A stretch of 14,044 nt of DNA from Chloroflexota bacterium. GTDB taxonomy: Bacteria > Chloroflexota > Dehalococcoidia > UBA2979. Both the position numbers and the translations under genes were made by a program. The notes under the pieces were generated by a model that saw only the letters and a list, made by a program, of their open reading frames with translations, made no database searches and was not told where the DNA came from. The number at the start of each line of letters is the position of its first letter. Position 1 is the stretch's first letter. The stretch covers positions 1-14,044 of the forward strand of contig JAQCIU010000058.1 in NCBI GenBank assembly GCA_027593235.1, written 5' to 3'. Shown in pieces: positions 3,075 through 13,970 of this stretch.

Positions 3075-3357
3075 TCATTGAGGACATGGGATGTCCGCAG
3101 GGCGGACCGGCCTGTGGCGAGACGTGGGTTGGATGCCCTGGCATGAGCCGTGGATCCGTCCCCCAGAGTCATCGCCAGCCCCGGGCCTCCCTGAAACGCG
3201 CCGAATCTGGGGCTGACGACCGAGACACCGCGCCGTCAACTCTCAGTGTTCGACCCCCGGGCACACATGGGCCTGCATCAACGGTTGGGTGTCGCGGCTG
3301 GTCAGTGGCGTGTCGCGCCTGCTGCCGCCAGGCGCGCAGGAAAGACAGGCTGGGACG

Positions 3358-5517
3358 ATGCTCCGAACCACGTGGCGACGAGGCGGCACCACCGCGACTA
3401 TCGCGGCGCTCGCCGTCGCACTCATGCTGCTTGCGCTCACTCCCGTCCGAACCGCCCTCGCGGCGGACGCCCCGACCGTTACCTCGGTCACCCCGGCGAC
3501 GGGGCTGGCGGCGGGCGGATCCACGATCGCGATCACCGGAACCGGCTTCTCCGCCGGTGCTGTCGTCACCATCGGTGGAACCGCCGCCACGGGGGTGGTC
3601 TTCAATAGCGCCACCAGCCTGTCCGCCGTGACGCCTGTTGGCGTACCGGGACCAACCACCATCACGGTCACCAACCTGGACGGCCAGAGCGGAACGCTCA
3701 GCAACGGGTTCAACTACCTCGATCTCGCGCCGGTCGTGACCTCCGTCAGTCCGCCCAGCGGCCCGACCACCGGCGGCACCACGATCACCATCGTTGGCAC
3801 CTCCTTCCGGAGCGGCGCCACGGTCTCGGTCGGCAACACCGCCGCCACCGCGGTCGTCGTCGTCAACGCCACCACCATCACCGCGGTTACGCCGGCCCGC
3901 GCCGTCGGACTGGTCGGTGTTCGAGTGACGAACTCGGACACCCAGAGCGGCCTGCTCGCCGACAGCTTCACTTACATCGCCGCGCCCGCCCCGCTCGTCA
4001 CGACGGTGGTCCCTGCGACCGGGCCGACCGTCGGCGGTACCGCTGTCACGATTAGCGGCACCGGCTTCGTCGCCGGCGCGACGGTCACCTTCGACGGGGT
4101 CGCCGCGACCGCCGTCAACGTGACGAACTCGACGACGATCACCGCGACCACCCCGGCACATGCCACGGGTGCGGTTGCCGTCGCCGTGCGGAACCCGGAC
4201 AGTCAGAGCGGAACCCTCGCGTCCGGGTTCGTCTACTCGGCGGCCCCGACCGTCACCTCGGTCAATCCCGCGAACGGCCCGACCGTGGGCGGCACTGACG
4301 TCACCATCAACGGCACCGGCTTCGTCACCGGCGCCACCGTTGCGTTTGGCGGCGTGGCCGCCACCAACGTCAACGTCGTGTCATCGACGAAGATCACGCT
4401 CAAGACGCCGCCGCGAACCAACCCGGACGTCGTCCAGGTAGTGGTCACCAACCCCGGCGGGCTCGCCGGGAACCTGGGGAATGCGTTCACCTACACGGCC
4501 GTCGTCTCAATCAGCTCCGTCGCGCCCGCGAAGGGGCCGACCGGGGGCGGGACCGCCGTCATCATCGCCGGCACCGGCTTCGTCAACGGCACCTCCGTCA
4601 CCTTCGGTGGCATCGTCTCCCCGACCATCGTCGTCATCTCGCCCGCGCAGCTCATCGCCACCACCCCGGCGCGCTCCGGCGGCACCGTCGATGTCGTTGT
4701 CACCCTGCCCGGTGGCGCGAAGGCCACCCGCACCAACGCCTTCACGTTCGAGGGCCTCTCGATCAGCTCGGTGACGCCGGCGACCGGAACGACCGCTGGT
4801 GGGACCACGGTCAAGCTCCTCGGCTCAGGTTTCGCCAAGGGCGCACTCGTGTTCTTCGACAACGCTCTCGCGACCGACTTCCAGTTCATCAGTCAGGGCG
4901 AAGTCCAGGTCAAGACGCCCGCGCACGCCGCGGGTCGGGTCACCGTCCTGGTGATCAACCCGGGCGGCGGCACCGCCCTCCTCACCGAGGGCTATCGGTA
5001 CATCCTCAGCGCGCCCACGATCCAGCGCATCGCGCCCAGTACCGGCCCGACCACCGGCGGCGTCTCCGTATCCATCGAGGGCTCGGGCTTCGACAGCGGC
5101 GCCACCGTCGATTTCGGCGGCGCGGCGAGCGCGAACGTCAACATTGTCAGCTCGACGCTGATCGTCGCCGTCACCCCGTTGCACGTCCCCGGCGTCGTTG
5201 TCGTGACCGTCCGTAACCGCGACGGTAGTGAGGTCAAGCTTGCCGGTGGCTACATCTACGAAGGCGCCGCCGGCGTGCTCGCCGGCCCACTTGCGAGGAA
5301 CGGCCTCTCGCTCGTCGTCTTCAGCGGCGGCACCACCGACCAGCTGATCGCCGCAGCCAGCCTGAGCTGCACGCCGAGCCGCCTCGGCATCTTCACCACC
5401 GTGGGCGGGCGCTGGGTCATCCTGCTCCCCGGCGCGCCGCCGAACGTCAACGCGGAGTGGAACTCCAACTTCCCGGCGGGCCTGCCGAAGATCCCGCTGC
5501 TCTTCCGCTGCGCCTAG
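3358..5517 (+). CDS. Secreted/cell-surface protein with 7 IPT/TIG repeats and a C-terminal two-Cys domain
   Basis: Signal peptide (MLRTTWRR, hydrophobic core, ALA|ADA), then seven ~85-aa repeats 'P.v.sv.P..Gp..GGt.v.i.GtgF..Ga.V.fg...a..v.v...t.i.a.TP....g.v.V.V.Np.g.....fTY', then a non-repeat tail of about 83 aa. ATG 3358 is preferred over GTG 3289. Confidence 0.93.
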   Translation: MLRTTWRRGGTTATIAALAVALMLLALTPVRTALAADAPTVTSVTPATGLAAGGSTIAITGTGFSAGAVVTIGGTAATGVVFNSATSLSAVTPVGVPGPTTITVTNLDGQSGTLSNGFNYLDLAPVVTSVSPPSGPTTGGTTITIVGTSFRSGATVSVGNTAATAVVVVNATTITAVTPARAVGLVGVRVTNSDTQSGLLADSFTYIAAPAPLVTTVVPATGPTVGGTAVTISGTGFVAGATVTFDGVAATAVNVTNSTTITATTPAHATGAVAVAVRNPDSQSGTLASGFVYSAAPTVTSVNPANGPTVGGTDVTINGTGFVTGATVAFGGVAATNVNVVSSTKITLKTPPRTNPDVVQVVVTNPGGLAGNLGNAFTYTAVVSISSVAPAKGPTGGGTAVIIAGTGFVNGTSVTFGGIVSPTIVVISPAQLIATTPARSGGTVDVVVTLPGGAKATRTNAFTFEGLSISSVTPATGTTAGGTTVKLLGSGFAKGALVFFDNALATDFQFISQGEVQVKTPAHAAGRVTVLVINPGGGTALLTEGYRYILSAPTIQRIAPSTGPTTGGVSVSIEGSGFDSGATVDFGGAASANVNIVSSTLIVAVTPLHVPGVVVVTVRNRDGSEVKLAGGYIYEGAAGVLAGPLARNGLSLVVFSGGTTDQLIAAASLSCTPSRLGIFTTVGGRWVILLPGAPPNVNAEWNSNFPAGLPKIPLLFRCA
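3469..5265 (+). repeat. Seven tandem IPT/TIG (Ig-like) domain repeats within the surface protein
   Basis: Repeat units begin APTVTSVTP, APVVTSVSP, APLVTTVVP, APTVTSVNP, VSISSVAP, LSISSVTP and APTIQRIAP. They are diverged at the DNA level. Confidence 0.9.
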
Positions 5518-6002: not shown

Positions 6003-8009
6003 CTAAGTCGTCCGCGTCGCCCAATCCCAGCGCACCGCCGCGTCCGCCACCAGCGTGGCGACGTCACTCTCGAGGACATAACGATCGCTCGCGAGGGCGC
6101 GTGCGGCTGCTTCGACCTGTGCCAGGTAATCCGCGCGATCGGCGTAGCGTTCGCCCAGCGAGCGGCGCGGATCGCTGACCGCTTCTCGGGTCAGGCGGGT
6201 CGTGCCGAAGTAGTGCGACGAGCCGATCATCGGGACGATCTGTTCGGGCGCGCCGCTGTCCGGGTCGCGCAGGTTCCAGGGGAGGTGGGTGGCGAGTGGG
6301 ACAGTCACGTCGGGCAGGCGGACGCCGGCCCGCTCGTTGCCGTTCGCGTCGAGCGCCGAGACCAGTGCCGGGTACGCGTCGCCTTCCACCACCGGGTAGC
6401 GACCGATCCCCTCGGCCGCGTCGCTCCCGAGGTCCGTCGTGCGGATCACCCACAGCCGTTCCGGGTCGGGACGCTCGAGGCCCGGCACCGCCCAGAGCGA
6501 CGCCAGCGCCTCGGCGCGCGTCACCGCAGTGCCATCGGCGATGCGCGGGTAGCGGCTTGGCGGCGGCTCAATCCGCTGACTCACCCACGCATCCAGGTTG
6601 ATCAGCGCCGCGCGCAGCAGCGGCCGGTAGTCCACCGTGTTCCGCGCATATCGAGGTCGTGCGCCATCACCACCGGCCGCCGAATCCGGCGGCATCGTTC
6701 CCGGTACGTGCTGCGCGCCCGCGAACGAGTAGGAGCGCACCTCCTCGGGCAGCTCGATGTCCTCGTCGCCGGCTGGATCGATGTGGGCCAGTGACCCATC
6801 GCCGCGCCAGTACTCGGCGCCGCTGTTCGTGTAGATCACCTTCGGTAGTGCTTCTGGGGACTCGCTGCGCAGGCGGTCCAGCAGGCCCTCGGTCCGCTCG
6901 CTGTAGGGGTCGACGGTCGGGTCGTCACTGAACGGGAACTGGTGGCCGAAGCCCGGCAGCGACTGCTGCGACGGCTGCGCGAAGCGATGGTTGAACTCGC
7001 CTCGGCGCCCGCCGGCCACGTGCGGCAGCAGCCCGTCGTAGGCTGCGCTGCCGTCCTCGGCGACGTTCAGCGCCAGGTAGAGCAGGTGCCGCAGCATCCG
7101 CCCGGTCTGCGAGATGCCGTAGCCGTAGACCCGCTCGAACCCGCCAGTCGGGTTGAGGCTTGCGCCACCTGGCGAACCGACGTCTTCCGGTCCGGCCCCA
7201 GAGGGGGTCGAAGACCCGCGCAAGAAGGAGGCGATCTCGCGTAGCGCGAGCAGCCCGCAGCCGACGACCGGCGCGCCCTCCGTCTCGAACACCAGCTCGT
7301 AGATTTTCCCCGGCACGAACCCGCTCTCGAGGTACACGTGCTCCCGGCTCGGCTCAACGCCGCCACCGTCGACCTCGCGAGCGAAGCGCCACGAGCTGCG
7401 CGGCAACTCCGAGGCCGGTCCGTCCTCCCAGTCCCGCACGAGCAGCGCCGCATCCGGCTGTTCGAGGTCGGCTGCGAGGTAGGGGATGTGAATCCGGTTC
7501 GCCAACAACCGCGTTCGCTCCTCGACGTGTGGCCGGATCTCCACCGCGATCTGCCCGCGGATCTCCCGCCCATCGATCATCGCGTGCGGCGCCTGCAACC
7601 CGAGCAGCCCACCGCCCGCCGGCACGTCCCACTGCCACCCGATCGAGGCCACGCTCCACCCGCGCCGCATCAGAAACCCGTCGCCCGCTGGGTCACCGCC
7701 TGCGTCGGCACGGTTGAACGCACCGAGCGCCCGCGGATTGCCTCGGTTCACCACGTCGACCAACAGCCGCCCGTTCCCGGCGCCGCCATTCGCCGGTGCC
7801 AGCAACGACAGGTCCGAGGTGAACCGCACGCAACCCTCGGCATCCCGCGGCGCCAGCGCCAGATCCACAATCGCCGCGTTCACCTCGGCCGTGGGATCGA
7901 CCGCGAACGTCACGCGCGCATCGATCTGCTCGTATGCCCCCACCTCGCCGAACGACACGCCCTCGGCAAACGGCCGGCGCGAGGTGATCTCGAAGTCGAC
8001 GACGGGCAT
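6003..8009 (-). CDS. Alpha/beta hydrolase domain-containing protein (Abhydrolase_10 / tannase-like family)
   Basis: Family-typical segments 'FGEVGAYE...FAVDP', 'LLVDVVNRG', 'DGFLMRRGWSV..IGWQWDV', nucleophile elbow G-I-S-Q-T-G, 'PKVIYTNSGAEYW', 'DANGNERAGVRLPDVTVPLATHLPWN', 'DPRRSLGERY'. ATG 8009 with a GAAGGAG RBS. Confidence 0.88.
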   Translation of the reverse strand: MPVVDFEITSRRPFAEGVSFGEVGAYEQIDARVTFAVDPTAEVNAAIVDLALAPRDAEGCVRFTSDLSLLAPANGGAGNGRLLVDVVNRGNPRALGAFNRADAGGDPAGDGFLMRRGWSVASIGWQWDVPAGGGLLGLQAPHAMIDGREIRGQIAVEIRPHVEERTRLLANRIHIPYLAADLEQPDAALLVRDWEDGPASELPRSSWRFAREVDGGGVEPSREHVYLESGFVPGKIYELVFETEGAPVVGCGLLALREIASFLRGSSTPSGAGPEDVGSPGGASLNPTGGFERVYGYGISQTGRMLRHLLYLALNVAEDGSAAYDGLLPHVAGGRRGEFNHRFAQPSQQSLPGFGHQFPFSDDPTVDPYSERTEGLLDRLRSESPEALPKVIYTNSGAEYWRGDGSLAHIDPAGDEDIELPEEVRSYSFAGAQHVPGTMPPDSAAGGDGARPRYARNTVDYRPLLRAALINLDAWVSQRIEPPPSRYPRIADGTAVTRAEALASLWAVPGLERPDPERLWVIRTTDLGSDAAEGIGRYPVVEGDAYPALVSALDANGNERAGVRLPDVTVPLATHLPWNLRDPDSGAPEQIVPMIGSSHYFGTTRLTREAVSDPRRSLGERYADRADYLAQVEAAARALASDRYVLESDVATLVADAAVRWDWATRTT

Positions 8010-8050
8010 GGGCGGGGCTCCTTCACGTGGTGGGGTGTGGGCGAGGAGCG

Positions 8051-8072
8051 ATTCTAGCGGGGTGAATAGCAT
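8051..8072. promoter_or_regulatory. Back-to-back divergent -10 elements: TAGAAT (- strand, 8051-8056) and TAGCAT (+ strand, 8067-8072)
   Basis: Two TANNNT hexamers in a 69-bp divergent intergenic region. The + strand one lies 6 nt before ATG 8079, which has no RBS. Confidence 0.55.
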
Positions 8073-8078
8073 GGTCCG

Positions 8079-8768
8079 ATGGCGAAGCGCACCGATCCGG
8101 CGAAGAGACAGCGGGCCGAACTCCGCGTCGTCCGGAAGTCTTCGTCTGGTTTGGCGCAACTCCTGTTTGCTCGGGTCCGCGGCAAAGACATCTATGTCGG
8201 TGGTAACGCGCAAGCTGGTCTTCAATTCCGAGCTACTTATCACGAGAGCGGCCAGACGCATCTCTACACGCCGTTCGGTCAGACGGGAATGTCCTTCGAG
8301 GAGCCGCCAGACGCGATCAAGGGCGTCAAACTCCTATGGCAGACGAGTACAGGGGCCGATCGCTGGGATTACCAGCTGAAGGCGGATTCCGAAAAGAAAC
8401 AAACACTAATCATCGATGACGGCGATTTTCCGGACGGTGCGTGTGTTATGGCACTCGCGGCCGAGCCTGAGGAGCAGCTCGTCAAAGGACTGCTTGCGGG
8501 AACTCCGTTCGAACCATCGAAGATCGAGGTCAGTGGTCACCTGGTGGCCAACTGGGTTTCCCCAGTGATCGTGGTGCTTGTGCTCAAGTGGAATGCGGCG
8601 ACAGCGGTCGCGATCCATGAGCAGATCGCCGCTGCCGCGGGCGAGTCCTCAGAACTCAACGGGTTCATCTACGGACCAGACCCCAACGGGCTCGAATGGG
8701 AGTACATGGGTAAGACCGAGGCGGACGGCACGGTCGTCCGCCCAGGTGCGCCGAAGACGGGAGGCTAA
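8079..8768 (+). CDS. Hypothetical protein (orphan-like, 229 aa)
   Basis: Fills the gap between two minus-strand genes and has globular amino-acid composition. Visibly more A/T-ending codons than its neighbours. Contains a 'TYHESGQTH' His motif. No family recognised. Confidence 0.78.
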   Translation: MAKRTDPAKRQRAELRVVRKSSSGLAQLLFARVRGKDIYVGGNAQAGLQFRATYHESGQTHLYTPFGQTGMSFEEPPDAIKGVKLLWQTSTGADRWDYQLKADSEKKQTLIIDDGDFPDGACVMALAAEPEEQLVKGLLAGTPFEPSKIEVSGHLVANWVSPVIVVLVLKWNAATAVAIHEQIAAAAGESSELNGFIYGPDPNGLEWEYMGKTEADGTVVRPGAPKTGG

Positions 8769-8921: not shown

Positions 8922-10130
8922 CTACATCAGATCGAGGCCGAAGTAGCGCTGGCGCGCCTGCTCGTCGGCGGGGAAGTCGGGGCCGTTGTAGGCGGCGTCC
9001 GGGTTGCGCGTGTGGTCGGTACCCCATGCGGCGAAGGCGAGGGCACGCTTCGCATCGCCCTCAGGGCCGGGGCCGAGCAGCAGCTCCTCCTGCCACGACT
9101 CGCCCTGCACCATCGCGTTGAAGTAGCGGTCGTGCTCGCTCCCGTATTGCGAGGCCGCCGCACGCCAGTCGTCGTTCGAGGTCAGCGCCTCACTCAGCAC
9201 CCGCGCGTCGCGGAAACCGAGCGAGAGGCCCTGGCCCCACGTCGGATCGGTGTAGCCGGCCGCGTCGCCGATCAGCGCCAGGCCGTCCTCGCACGGGTTG
9301 TCGATCCAGCGCATCTCCGTATCGAACGTCGCCAGCGGACCGACTGCCTCGGCCGCGCCGAACACGTCGAGATCGCCCAGCAGCGGCTTCAGCCCCGCGA
9401 GGAATGAGTCGACATCCTTCGCCCCGCTCAGCCGCTTCCGCTCGTCGCGCGCCGGTCCGAGGTAGACGCGCGCCGTTCCGTCGCCCTGAGGGAAGACCGC
9501 CGCGGCGTAGCCGCTCGCCGGGTCCATCGTCAGCATCCCGGTATCCGACGGCCAGTTCAGATTGCGTATCCGCACGCCCGCCCACAGCCGCATCTCGCCG
9601 CGCGTCTGCTCCGGCCGTTCGATCTGCTTCCGCACCATCGAGGTGCGTCCATCCGCTCCAACCACCAGTCGTGCGCTCGCCGCGTGCTCGCCGTCGCCGT
9701 CCCACGTCACCGCCGGCGCCTCACCGCCGACGACCGAGGTCACGCGCGCGCCGCGGATCACCTCGGCGCCCAGCTCGGCTGCCCAGCCCAGCAGCGCCTC
9801 CTGCGCGTTCGGGTGGAAGAACGTCAGCGCACACCGCCGCGGCTTCGACCGCTCCAGCAGATCGCGAGGCTTCGGCGCCAGCCCGTACACGCCCGAGTTC
9901 TGGTAGCGCACGTCGTGCGCCGAGGCGCGCTCGCGCAGCACCTCGAGGATGCCGAGCTGCTCCAGCTCCAGCACGCCCCACGGCGCGACCCATTCGCCGC
10001 GTACGCGGTCGCGGAACTCCCGCTCGCGCTCCAGCAGCAGCACGCTCGCACCCGAGGCCGCGACTCGCCCGGCCAGCGACGACCCCGCGATTCCGCCACC
10101 CACGACGATCAGGTCATATCGCTCGGCCAT
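8922..10130 (-). CDS. FAD-dependent oxidoreductase/monooxygenase (FAD_binding_3 / UbiH-like)
   Basis: GxGxxG (VVGGGIAG), 'LLLER...RVRGE', DG motif (VVGADGRTS), GD motif (LIGDAAG..DP..GQGLSLG..DA). GAAAGG RBS. Confidence 0.92.
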   Translation of the reverse strand: MAERYDLIVVGGGIAGSSLAGRVAASGASVLLLEREREFRDRVRGEWVAPWGVLELEQLGILEVLRERASAHDVRYQNSGVYGLAPKPRDLLERSKPRRCALTFFHPNAQEALLGWAAELGAEVIRGARVTSVVGGEAPAVTWDGDGEHAASARLVVGADGRTSMVRKQIERPEQTRGEMRLWAGVRIRNLNWPSDTGMLTMDPASGYAAAVFPQGDGTARVYLGPARDERKRLSGAKDVDSFLAGLKPLLGDLDVFGAAEAVGPLATFDTEMRWIDNPCEDGLALIGDAAGYTDPTWGQGLSLGFRDARVLSEALTSNDDWRAAASQYGSEHDRYFNAMVQGESWQEELLLGPGPEGDAKRALAFAAWGTDHTRNPDAAYNGPDFPADEQARQRYFGLDLM

Positions 10131-11380: not shown

Positions 11381-12379
11381 CTACATGCGGCGGAGGCGGA
11401 CTCGCTGGATGTCGTGGGCGGGACCCTTTTCCAGGATCACGTGCGCGCGTTCGCGCGTCGGCAGGATGTTCTCGTGCAGGTTCGCGAGGTTGATCGACCG
11501 CCAGATCTGGTGCGCCGTCTTCCGCGCTTCTTCTTCCGTCAGCTTGGCGAAGCGATGGAAGAAGGAGTCGTCGTCCTGGAACACGGTCGCGCGCAGCGTC
11601 ATGAACCGCTCTACATACCACTCCTCGATGTGGCGCTCGTCCGCGTCCACGTAGATCGAGCTATCGAAGAAGTCCGAGACGAAGGTCAGCGAAGGCGTCC
11701 CGGCCGCGATGTCCTCGGGCGTCCGGTGCTCCATCTGCAGCACGTTCAGACCCTCGATGATCAGGATGTCCGGCTGCCGGACGATCTGGTGTTCGCCCGG
11801 CACGATGTCGTAGGTCACGTGCGAGTAGACGGGTGCACGTACCTCCGCGCGTCCGGACTTCAGGTCGGCGACGAACTGCACCAGCGCGCGGGTGTCGTAG
11901 CTCTCCGGGAACCCCTTGCGACCGACGATGCCGCGCTTGTGCAACTCCGACAGGGAATAGAGGAATCCGTCCGTCGCCACCAGCTCCACGCGCGGCTCGC
12001 CCTCGGAGCGGGCCAGCAGTTCCTGGAGGATGCGTGCCGTCGTGCTCTTCCCGACCGCCACGCTCCCGGCAACGCCGATTACGAACGGCACCCGCGGTGA
12101 GTCGTTCCCCAGGAACCGCGCGCGCGCGCCATACAGCTCGCGCGCGGACTCTACGTACATCCGCAGCAGTCGCGTCAGCGGGAGGTAGGTATCGGCCACC
12201 TCGTCCAGGCTCACGCGGTCGTTCAACCCGACGAGGGCCTGCAACTCGCCCTCGGTCAGCGGCAGCTTCGTGCCGTTCCGCAGTTGTGCCCACTCGCCTC
12301 GTGCGAAGTCCACGTACCGCGACAGCGGCGCGTGTTCGCGCGTGCCGTCGTCCTGGTTGATCGCGGGGGTGGGAGCCAT
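11381..12379 (-). CDS. coaA: Type I pantothenate kinase
   Basis: Walker [10 protein letters not shown], 'TDGFL', 'RKGFPESYD', '[14 protein letters not shown]', '[13 protein letters not shown]', 'VSDFFD.SIYVDA', 'WYVERF', '[23 protein letters not shown]'. Confidence 0.97.
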
Positions 12380-12385
12380 GCGGGG

Positions 12386-12391
12386 ATTGTA
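12386..12391 (-). promoter_or_regulatory. -10 element (TACAAT) 6 nt before the coaA ATG; probable leaderless promoter
   Basis: The minus strand reads TACAAT-CCCCGC-ATG, with no Shine-Dalgarno. Confidence 0.6.
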
Positions 12392-12465
12392 GGGGCCTGA
12401 CCCGCTGGCGCCAGCGCCTGTGTTGCGAGCCGATCAGAATCGCGCCGCGACGGCGGCGGAGTGGC

Positions 12466-12672
12466 TTACCCCCGAGGGCGCCGCGCCTGTCGAACGAAGC
12501 GCGCGACCAGCCGGAACGGCCAGCGCACGCCCTTCCAGATCCACCCTTCGACCTGCGCCGCGTCTTCGTTCAACGCCACGGCGTTCCGGTGGTTCTGCGC
12601 CGCGTGGGCATTCAGTGCCTTCGCGTCGTGCTCGAAGTGGGGAGGAGGGATATAGGGGTGTCCGTGGCTCAT
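12466..12672 (-). CDS. Small protein (68 aa) with Trp/Arg-rich C-terminal amphipathic motif; paralog of 12669-12854
   Basis: ATGA overlap with the upstream paralog and a GGTGAGG RBS. 16 of 19 residues are identical to the paralog in the C-terminal motif, with mostly synonymous DNA differences. Confidence 0.82.
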   Translation of the reverse strand: MSHGHPYIPPPHFEHDAKALNAHAAQNHRNAVALNEDAAQVEGWIWKGVRWPFRLVARFVRQARRPRG

Positions 12673-12854
12673 CGCCTCACCACCCGCGCCAGTAGGCGGA
12701 ACGGCCAGCGGACGCCAGCCCAGATCCAGCCGGTGATGATTCCGACATCTTCCGTCGACTTCGTCATCCGCTCGTGATGGTCGTCCGACGTGCGCTGAAT
12801 CACGCGCGCGTCGTTGGGATCGACAGGTGGTGGCGGGGCGCCGTAGAAGACCAT
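12669..12854 (-). CDS. Small protein (61 aa) with Trp/Arg-rich C-terminal amphipathic motif; paralog of 12466-12672
   Basis: AGGAG RBS and a candidate -10 (TATCCT) upstream. Ungapped alignment to the downstream paralog. Confidence 0.82.
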   Translation of the reverse strand: MVFYGAPPPPVDPNDARVIQRTSDDHHERMTKSTEDVGIITGWIWAGVRWPFRLLARVVRR

Positions 12855-12877
12855 ATGTAATCTCTCTCCTGACGCAC

Positions 12878-12883
12878 AGGATA
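12878..12883 (-). promoter_or_regulatory. Candidate -10 element (TATCCT) for the microprotein pair
   Basis: The minus strand reads ...GGTATCCTGTGCGTCAGGAGAGAGATTACATATG: a TANNNT, then an RBS, then the start codon. Confidence 0.5.
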
Positions 12884-12956
12884 CCGAGATTCAGCCCGCT
12901 CTGCCGGGCGGATCGCCTGAGGATCGCGCCCGGTACGGGGCCGCCGAGGTCGAGCG

Positions 12957-13970
12957 TTACTCGAGGATCTTCACCTTGATCAGAGCCGCAATCTTGTCGA
13001 AGGTCGCGCCCAGGTCACCGGCCGTCGGGCTCGGGACGTAGACGCCGTTTCCCAGCGTCGCCAGATCCTGCAACAGGGCGTCGTCCGCGCTGGCGCCGAG
13101 GCCAATCGTGTAGATCGTGATGCCCTGCGCGGCTGCTGCCTGTGCCTGGCTGCGGGAGTAGGTCGCGGCCTGAGCCTCGGTGCATGATGCGCCGCCCGCG
13201 CAGCGGTTCGGCACCCCGTCGGAGAGCAGGACGATGATCTTCAACGCGTCAGGTCGAGTGTTGACGCCGTTGATCACGTCGTTCCGCGCTCGCAGAATTG
13301 CGTCGCCGATGTTCGTGCTGCCGCTCGGGTAGATGTTGGTGATCGCGCTCTCAAGGGCCGATCCCGAACCGAAGTTCGCCGAGGCCGTCAGGTCCAGCGT
13401 GGCCTGCGTCGCGAACGACACGAGACCCACCCGCGTGTACCCCGGCTCGAACAGATCCGAGAACCCGTCGGCCGCAACCTTTACCGAGGTCATCGGCTCA
13501 TGCGCCGGAGGTGGCGCCGGGCAGGTCGAGGTGAGGTAGTGCGAATCGCGGCACATCGACCCCGATCGGTCCAGCGACAGCACGATGTCCGTGAGCTGCG
13601 CACCGGCGACCGCTCGCACGCTCACCGTCGCCGAGTCTTTGCCGAACAGCGACAGAATCGTGTACTTCAGCTCCATTGAGCCGATGACCTCGATCTGCTC
13701 GCGATCGGGCGTCGGGAACGCCACCGTGAAGGTGGACGGCCCGCCTGAGGGGCGGTTGGCGTCGAAGTACACGTCGGCCGTCGATTGCGCCGCCGCCGTG
13801 TTCGGCAGCATCTGCGCGCCCGCGTGTGCCGCAGCGTCAACGGCGTTCTGTAGCTGGCGTCGCTGCTCCAGGTGGATGCCGACGTCCAGCACGATCCCCA
13901 TCATGCCCAGCAGCGTGATCAGCGCGCCGGTCATCAGCACAATCACCTGCCCGGACTCACTGCTGCGCAC
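12957..13970 (-). CDS. Tad/Flp pilus TadG-like protein: N-terminal pilin-like segment plus C-terminal vWA domain
   Basis: 'ESGQ' prepilin-like site followed by a hydrophobic helix and 'LDVG....RRQLQNAVDAAAHAGA' (Tad domain). vWA MIDAS motif DRSGS, plus 'GSTNIGDAI', 'IVLLSDG.PN' and 'IYTIGLG'. The frame stays open to the window edge, so the true start may lie upstream of GTG 13970. Confidence 0.9.
   Translation of the reverse strand: MRSSESGQVIVLMTGALITLLGMMGIVLDVGIHLEQRRQLQNAVDAAAHAGAQMLPNTAAAQSTADVYFDANRPSGGPSTFTVAFPTPDREQIEVIGSMELKYTILSLFGKDSATVSVRAVAGAQLTDIVLSLDRSGSMCRDSHYLTSTCPAPPPAHEPMTSVKVAADGFSDLFEPGYTRVGLVSFATQATLDLTASANFGSGSALESAITNIYPSGSTNIGDAILRARNDVINGVNTRPDALKIIVLLSDGVPNRCAGGASCTEAQAATYSRSQAQAAAAQGITIYTIGLGASADDALLQDLATLGNGVYVPSPTAGDLGATFDKIAALIKVKILE

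Follow-up and report, generated by a model that had tools for sequence, protein, structure and literature searches.

The window considered here is a 14,044-nucleotide (nt) stretch of a Chloroflexota bacterium genome (Dehalococcoidia; contig JAQCIU010000058.1), and it carries on its minus strand two adjacent short open reading frames (ORFs), W1 and W2, which comparative evidence shows to be genuine protein-coding genes. As judged from profile searches, they belong to a lineage-restricted, fast-evolving small family with members in a few Dehalococcoidia; these join a Pro-rich, polar N-terminal part to a cationic C-terminal helix bearing the motif WPxR. At the level of sequence the family is new; by type, it counts as a variant of the small cationic amphipathic-helix proteins. 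The WPxR helix may attach the proteins to the membrane surface, where they could act as a multi-peptide membrane-active system, a reading to which we give a probability of roughly 0.45.

The list of minus-strand ORFs places W1 and W2 exactly where the original prediction had them (Table 1), with the stop codon of W1 overlapping the start codon of W2 as ATGA. Their products align without gaps (BLASTP; 24/54 identities, E 6e-18) and have PPP, DA[RK], H and ED in common, and within two blocks of 19 residues (12731-12675 versus 12546-12490) 16 of the 19 are identical. The corresponding 19-codon blocks agree at 42 of 57 nucleotides, and seven of the 16 identical residues are encoded differently (GGC/GGG, GTC/GTG, CGC/CGG, CTA/CTG, CGG/CGC, GTG/GTT and AGG/CGA). 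The gapless alignment, the shared residues and the differing codons first described were all reproduced exactly, and these synonymous differences within identical residues uphold the accompanying claim of selection on the peptide rather than a DNA repeat. By sequence comparison, the paralogy of W1 and W2 is far beyond chance, because other genomes carry the same family at E 1e-12 to 1e-30; against the family profile hidden Markov model, W1 and W2 themselves score E 3e-26 and 1e-27, respectively. The GC content at codon positions 1/2/3 is 0.66/0.51/0.80 in W1 and 0.74/0.49/0.84 in W2, and the flanking genes are patterned alike.

The first residues of two homologues, P0001 and P0002, are those of W2. 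The W2 frame is also open for 182 codons upstream (window 12469-13014, minus strand), across W1 as far as the 3′-terminal part of the neighbouring von Willebrand A (vWA) gene, an extension that is taken as a high-GC artefact because its upstream part has no family similarity. Close variants of both proteins are on record: relative to W2, P0001 carries V32L, and relative to W1, P0021 carries K32R and I39V. Contigs from an independent freshwater run (X3) cover the array with five differences, too few for a population test, and the two listed inside W2 are V32L, as in P0001, and a synonymous change at N21. Two other DNA runs, X4 and X5, leave 12512-12772 uncovered, a gap to which no meaning attaches.

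A two-sequence profile of W1 and W2 already found tandem homologues in related genomes. The original prediction had proposed a search for a wider family, and a 26-sequence profile (A2), run at a threshold of E<=0.001 on 99 genomes of the same taxonomic family with at most 63 first-look candidates scored per genome, delineates a small one: tandem arrays in 7 of the 99 genomes, which fall in 5 of the 21 genera (E 1.6e-12 to 1.6e-30). The homologues are 51-84 amino acids (aa) long and occur in one to four copies per genome, always adjacent and on one strand. Genome G003 has four copies, G023 and G016 have three each, G014 has two, and G007 and G041 have one each; W1 and W2 are the only two copies in G000, the window's own genome (3.39 Mb, 78 contigs). 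Among 401 genomes sampled across the phylum, with 15 candidates scored per genome, a good match was found in G000 only, and partial matches in five others (E 3e-4 to 9e-4) are regarded as noise; one of the five is the unpublished genome G338, from which no conclusion is drawn.

Protein collections gave a similarly compact picture. Searched with the two-sequence profile in HMMER, 1.84 billion representative proteins yielded 18 matches at E<=1e-3, of which 16 are proteins of 56-84 aa with a like layout and the two long ones (P0017 and P0020) are repeat proteins. A word-indexed collection of 5.8 billion proteins returned 2 and 13 matches labelled hypothetical protein, two of them from 'Dehalococcoidia bacterium'. 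A search restricted to longer proteins found no longer or fused relative at E<=0.01 among 8000 candidates, and W1 and W2 are therefore not fragments of a longer known protein, an outcome that the original prediction had named as one that would undo it.

Comparisons of family DNA cover 15 copies. The GC content at third codon positions is 0.75-0.87 in all of them, and differences by codon position 1/2/3, summed over all pairs, number 3120/2577/3500. The Nei-Gojobori ratio of non-synonymous to synonymous substitution (dN/dS), a check suggested at the outset, is below one in 14 of the 15 computable pairs (0.34-0.61; 16 pairs were tried and one was saturated). Least probable of all the explanations weighed here is that these are conserved non-functional ORFs, or that selection acts on the opposite strand. 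It could appeal to dN/dS values only moderately below one, and to the in-phase antisense frame, which is open in 11 of the 15 copies; open antisense frames are usual in high-GC DNA, and stops interrupt this one in the other 4/15. The synonymous differences within identical residues argue against it as well, and it is the sense frame that has the motif, the start codons and the Shine-Dalgarno sites: a Shine-Dalgarno core (GGAG, GAGG or AGGA at -18..-4) stands before 10 of the 15 copies, versus 302 of 1768 (17%) ATGs in the same loci.

The anatomy of the proteins was read from the family alignments, together with counts over 33 members where these are given. The N-terminal Met is often followed by x-F, and two successive prolines occur within the first 16 residues of 26 members (PPP in 15/33). 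After the prolines comes D-x-K-A, and then an acidic polar stretch of the form AEQ-[DN]-H-x-N ... G-L-x-[QE]-D. The WP pair, whose Trp and Pro are at least 90% conserved, comes after a hydrophobic run that in many members contains G-W-I/L-W; in alignment A3, Arg follows at +2 and +6, and then V-R-R. WP.R is present in 27/33 members, and in 14/33 the protein ends exactly 10 residues past the Pro. The WxW part of the motif on which the original prediction had drawn is not conserved family-wide; WP alone is. Cys is missing from 28/33 members, Arg (4-16 per member) far outnumbers Lys, and the pI is mostly 10-12 (9.9 for W1; 11.2 for W2, with a net charge of +5). No Cys, Ser or Thr is conserved among the members, the W of WP is the single conserved Trp while the others vary, and the member sequences have no hydrophobic N-terminus or signal peptide. 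An 80-aa relative, P0016, has a twin-arginine/lipobox-like N-terminus before a like GWIW..WPVR helix; its start could be mis-called, or else it is a variant that is truly exported or lipid-anchored.

When supplied with family alignments, AlphaFold2 predicts one long helix for each protein (residues 16-60 of W1 and 14-63 of W2), with a predicted local distance difference test score (pLDDT) of 81-89 over residues 41-60 (85 for W1). The maximal 18-residue Eisenberg hydrophobic moment always lies on the C-terminal segment. It ranges from 0.52 to 0.87 over 15 copies, and in 10 of these reaches 0.75-0.87 at a mean hydrophobicity of about 0. On a 100-degree helical wheel, calculated by hand, the basic positions -5, -2, +2, +6, +9 and +10 from the Pro fall in one 120-degree arc, with aliphatic residues and Phe on the opposite face and the Trp residues at the boundary. 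The N-terminal part, taken to 12 residues before WP, has a charge of -2 to -4 in 10/15 copies, and the C-terminal part one of +3 to +9 in 14/15, the remaining copy (G023b) being at +1 with an acidic tail. Alignment, charges and moments together bear out the architecture first proposed, a Pro-rich, polar and divergent N-terminal part followed by a cationic, Trp-containing, Pro-kinked amphipathic C-terminal part.

On the favoured reading, W1 and W2, which have no signal peptide, would be made in the cytoplasm, and each is predicted to fold almost wholly into a single long helix. The first third of the protein is Pro-rich and, together with the middle, net acidic, while the last ~24 residues form a Pro-kinked, strongly amphipathic helix with a hydrophobic face, an Arg stripe, a boundary Trp and a nearly invariant WPxR. 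This helix would lie on the cytoplasmic face of an anionic membrane, where it may anchor the acidic N-terminal part or, at higher dose or in mixed paralogue oligomers, perturb the bilayer. Should it perturb the bilayer, the array would constitute a leaderless multi-peptide membrane-active system. Here we infer membrane binding, orientation, oligomerisation and biological role alike. The original prediction had offered three options, namely a two-peptide membrane-active system, precursors of ribosomally synthesised and post-translationally modified peptides (RiPPs), and accessories of the adjacent Tad/vWA protein. The two- or multi-peptide membrane-active option appears the most plausible of these, and is strengthened because the moments reach 0.75-0.87 and the arrays hold one to four diverged copies.

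Several results weigh against this reading. The mean pLDDT is only 68 for W1 and 70 for W2, and dN/dS is 1.12 for the G023b/c pair and moderately below one for the others. A sequence search of the PDB with the profile gave chance-level matches only (best E 2.2), and the ESM Atlas gave no usable match. The C-terminal segment fails the classical transmembrane test, with 3-4 Arg and one Pro in 23 residues, and its hand-calculated 19-residue Kyte-Doolittle mean is about 1.0 versus the usual 1.6. Pfam scans around six loci, which took in 5+18+14+34 ORFs (most are neighbours, and W1 and W2 are among the 5; G041 lies outside), found no exporter, immunity or antitoxin-like gene conserved beside the arrays, so that a secreted-bacteriocin role would be without its usual genetic context. 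Lastly, the Arg stripe on the helix could equally bind a nucleic acid or a protein partner. A complex prediction for W1 and W2, with both supplied as alignments, scored 0.00 without controls and speaks neither for nor against binding.

Because of its 3-4 Arg and its Pro, the C-terminal segment is not classically transmembrane, and this, with a hydropathy under the usual thresholds, makes it unlikely that the proteins are tail-anchored single-pass proteins acting as small regulators of a membrane complex, with snorkelling Arg, a cytoplasmic RR end and an N-terminal part that is either translocated or cytoplasmic. Such an arrangement would suit the ~12-residue hydrophobic run before WPxR and the clustering of positive charges at the extreme C-terminus, and P0016, a single predicted protein, would suit it through its N-terminus. 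Somewhat less likely again is an Arg-rich helix that binds RNA, DNA or the ribosome instead of the membrane. The Arg content, the basic pI and the one-sided Arg stripe along a long helix are what such a helix would have, but its opposite face is conservatively hydrophobic and aromatic, its invariant residues are W and P and not Arg alone, and no gene of translation or nucleic-acid function is linked to the arrays in the six contexts.

Docking of the WPxR helix on the membrane finds its analogues in the C-terminal amphipathic membrane-targeting helices of the MinD/FtsA type and in the Pro-hinged cationic lytic peptides of the melittin type. The likeness, a matter of analogy only, lies in a terminal cationic amphipathic helix with an interfacial Trp; they differ in that the helix here is a third of a free-standing 60-aa protein. 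In lytic peptides of the melittin type, a hydrophobic helix leads through a Pro hinge to a basic end, and the precursor has an acidic Pro-rich pro-region in front. It is conceivable, though doubtful, that the family is a Chloroflexota-specific leaderless multi-peptide system of this sort, in which each peptide's own acidic Pro-rich pro-region would mask a Pro-hinged Arg/Trp lytic helix. Such a system would be bacteriocin-like or self-directed (toxin or lysis), would have no dedicated exporter or immunity gene, and would undergo rapid array turnover.

Functionally, the nearest described kind is, by analogy, that of the leaderless two- to four-peptide bacteriocins. A review gives the leaderless bacteriocins that it lists lengths of 30-44 aa, net charges of +4 to +7 and pI values of 10.7-11, and describes their loci as adjoining conserved secretion and immunity determinants (PMC6131525). 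The multi-peptide members of this group (enterocin L50A/B, aureocin A70, garvicin KS and the cereucins) are encoded by sets of two to four paralogous genes in tandem, whose products are small, cationic and helical and have no leader. The arrays described here likewise consist of tandem paralogous genes for small cationic proteins without a leader or signal peptide. However, there is no sequence similarity between the two groups, the present proteins are longer and have an acidic Pro-rich N-terminal half, and their hosts are Chloroflexota rather than Bacillota. Nor did the six-locus Pfam scans find an ABC transporter or conserved secretion and immunity genes beside them.

The RiPP option has lost ground. 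RiPP precursors (Trp cross-linked or similar) with modifying enzymes encoded elsewhere would fit the presence of several precursor-like genes in tandem and of an aromatic C-terminal core that is conserved, and yet no radical-SAM/SPASM, YcaO, lanthipeptide, P450, ABC or peptidase-transporter gene lies within ~8 kb at the six loci. With no conserved Cys, Ser or Thr, a WxW motif that is not family-wide, and a core whose periodicity is that of an amphipathic helix, this origin is quite improbable. Two further kinds of small protein were considered and rejected, Flp/Fap pilins and WXG100 proteins, which resemble the family in small size, tandem genes and, in the window, a nearby Tad-domain gene. 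For Flp/Fap pilins (PF04964) and TadE-like proteins there is no Pfam match at E<=1 for 26 members and no N-terminal hydrophobic pilin segment. For WXG100 there is no Pfam match either, and WxG occurs in W1 and W2 but not family-wide.

No Pfam or NCBIfam model reaches its cut-off, in agreement with the original statement that no known family was recognised. The best Pfam model, PF07860 (CCD, the WisP C-terminal region), gives 14 and 13.2 bits (E 0.05-0.1) versus a gathering cut-off of 25, with weak matches in 5/26 members. The only curated model that touches the family repeatedly is NCBIfam NF040918, 'LPFR motif small protein' (LPFR_fam), a 35-position model whose function is not stated in the library. 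It matches 7/26 members at E<1, always on the C-terminal WPxR helix and at model positions ~10-33, with scores of 13-24.5 bits versus a cut-off of 40 (W1 13.4, W2 13.1, and G014b the best at 24.5, E 1.6e-5). The likeness lies in an aromatic/Leu-Pro-Phe-Arg core, W1 and W2 having WPFR and the family consensus being WPxR; the difference lies in the 35 positions of the model versus the 51-84 aa and additional N-terminal half of the proteins here. Searches of 31 relatives and of 401 genomes across the phylum found no member of NF040918 above its cut-off, and plasmids searched by tblastn with the member most like LPFR gave chance matches only (E 4-7). Literature searches found nothing on an LPFR motif or LPFR small protein, nor on amphipathic small proteins of Dehalococcoidia. 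On this evidence, the match hints at distant homology or at convergence and does not amount to membership; the masked lytic-helix system outlined above could be distantly tied to the LPFR small-protein family.

Table 1. The W1/W2 array, its surroundings in the window, and gene order at related loci
Feature	Position in window	Strand	Description
W1 (copy 1)	12669..12854	-	61 aa, ATG start; N-terminal PPPP, polar/acidic middle, C-terminal GWIWAGVRWPFRLLARVVRR helix
W2 (copy 2)	12466..12672	-	68 aa, ATG start; His-rich N-terminal part, like C-terminal helix and QARRPRG tail
Conserved 19-codon block, W1	12675..12731	-	WPxR amphipathic helix; maximal hydrophobic moment 0.75
Conserved 19-codon block, W2	12490..12546	-	Maximal hydrophobic moment 0.87
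Array leader	12855..12956	-	Intergenic; -10-like TATCCTGT ~25 nt and AGGAG ~10 nt upstream of the W1 ATG
Array-to-PRK/CoaA-like spacer	12380..12465	-	Holds CCCTACAATCCCCGCATG; -10-like TACAAT 6 nt before the coaA-like ATG; kept in G000 and G003
TadE/G-like N-terminus and von Willebrand A protein	12957..13970	-	Upstream neighbour; Pfam VWA 5e-18, Tad 2e-9
PRK-family (pantothenate-kinase-like) gene	11381..12379	-	Downstream neighbour; Pfam PRK 4e-13
Loci of G000 and G003 (same genus)			TadE/G-like vWA gene, then array, then PRK/pantothenate-kinase-like gene
Locus of G007			Divergent FAS1-DH/MaoC-like hydratase pair, then array, then PRK gene
Locus of G023			Like hydratase pair upstream; convergent formamidase downstream
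Locus of G016			Divergent SDR upstream
Loci of G014 and G041			Aconitase upstream; convergent MFS gene downstream

The genes around the six loci are ordinary metabolic and housekeeping genes, and the array is shown to have no conserved partner gene. MFS genes are found near two loci only, in differing positions. The vWA gene adjoins the array in G000 and G003 only, and this restriction to one genus weakens the earlier suggestion that the small proteins are accessories of the Tad/vWA protein. In both genomes the array lies on the same strand and ~100 nt downstream of the vWA gene, as would be expected of accessory subunits or regulators of the TadE/G-like vWA protein. The gene is, however, missing at the array loci of G007, G023, G016 and G014, and in G003, where it lies at L025 7087-8154, the next gene beyond it is an opposite-strand alpha/beta-hydrolase instead of a tad gene; the G000 contig stops 74 nt past it. 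A role tied to this protein is largely refuted by context and now retains very little probability.

The PRK gene lies downstream of the array in three of the six loci (G000, G003 and G007). Beyond it, synteny between G000 and G003, which G007 shares in part, takes in Abhydrolase_10 and FAD-monooxygenase genes (window 6003-8261 and 8922-10130; L025 11489-15479; L027 9371-11326), so that the array sits in an otherwise conserved chromosomal neighbourhood. The position directly upstream of a PRK/CoaA-like gene, the polyproline N-terminus and the invariant WP could all be accommodated if the ORFs were regulatory leader or arrest peptides for the coaA-like gene, with stalling at PPP and W/P near the end. 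Against this stand the three loci with no coaA downstream, the presence of up to four tandem copies, the helical periodicity of the conservation, and the -10-like element of its own that the coaA-like gene keeps at its ATG, all of which leave such a leader function highly improbable. Elsewhere in the window, a 742-aa ORF at 3289-5517 on the plus strand probably encodes a surface protein; its N-terminal domain is neocarzinostatin-like, and it contains seven IPT/TIG domains (E 1e-97).

The signals around the array agree in part with the original prediction, which had assigned the ORFs their own candidate -10 element and ribosome-binding sites. The ribosome-binding sites stand: AGGAG lies ~10 nt before the W1 ATG, and GAGG 3 nt before that of W2. 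The -10 element is not borne out by a consensus scan of positions 12300-13100, which found no sigma-70-like promoter, and the TATCCT element ~25 nt upstream of W1 is no more than a consensus-type hint; the -10-like TATCCTGT there also precedes copies G003a and G003b in the same-genus genome. The same scan found no intrinsic terminator, and Rfam gave no match on the whole window. Directly before the PRK gene, CCCTACAATCCCCG[C/G]ATGG is present in both G000 (window 12380-12410, minus strand) and G003 (L025 ~9160-9200), which suggests that the array and the PRK gene may be driven by separate promoters. Because TACAAT lies only 6 nt before the ATG, a leaderless mRNA is also suggested for the PRK/pantothenate-kinase-like gene. 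The placement of the element in G003 implies a later start for the PRK gene there than that of the longest ORF (9097).

The array itself changes quickly. Between G000 and G003, flanking proteins are 70-81% identical, versus ~37-43% for the best pairs of small proteins, and the copies number two versus four. G001, of the same genus, keeps the PRK gene (76% identical), but the array is missing upstream of that gene and the family profile has no match in the genome. When the 33 members are placed in a maximum-likelihood tree, W1 pairs with P0003 (98/86) and then joins the clade holding G023c (92/85), and W2 falls with P0002 and P0005 (87/99), while the deeper forks are unresolved. As W1 and W2 each group with proteins of other genomes, their duplication predates the divergence of these genera, and by the tree distinct paralogue types are retained. 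Set against the G014 locus (L028 8794-9169), the single copy in G041 (L056 7389-7610) has an upstream open frame like the leader of copy a and runs on as copy b, which suggests that unequal recombination between the tandem copies caused a deletion. The arrays grow and shrink, probably through tandem duplication and unequal recombination. By these comparisons, the locus is accessory and dynamic, because its presence is patchy, its copy number changes and its members diverge fast.

Small proteins are annotated more poorly than any other part of bacterial genomes, and we know of no genetic system for Dehalococcoidia. The family is a clean example, with clear purifying selection on one helix, and merits a model in family libraries, as its genes are otherwise missed or labelled hypothetical. 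If the tie to the LPFR small proteins were true, the proposed system would provide the first functional hypothesis for that family. Were the WPxR helix merely a membrane anchor, it would define a new targeting module. If instead it is membrane-active, the arrays would be the first bacteriocin- or toxin-like peptide system proposed for Dehalococcoidia, and would offer short Arg/Trp peptides for biophysical study.

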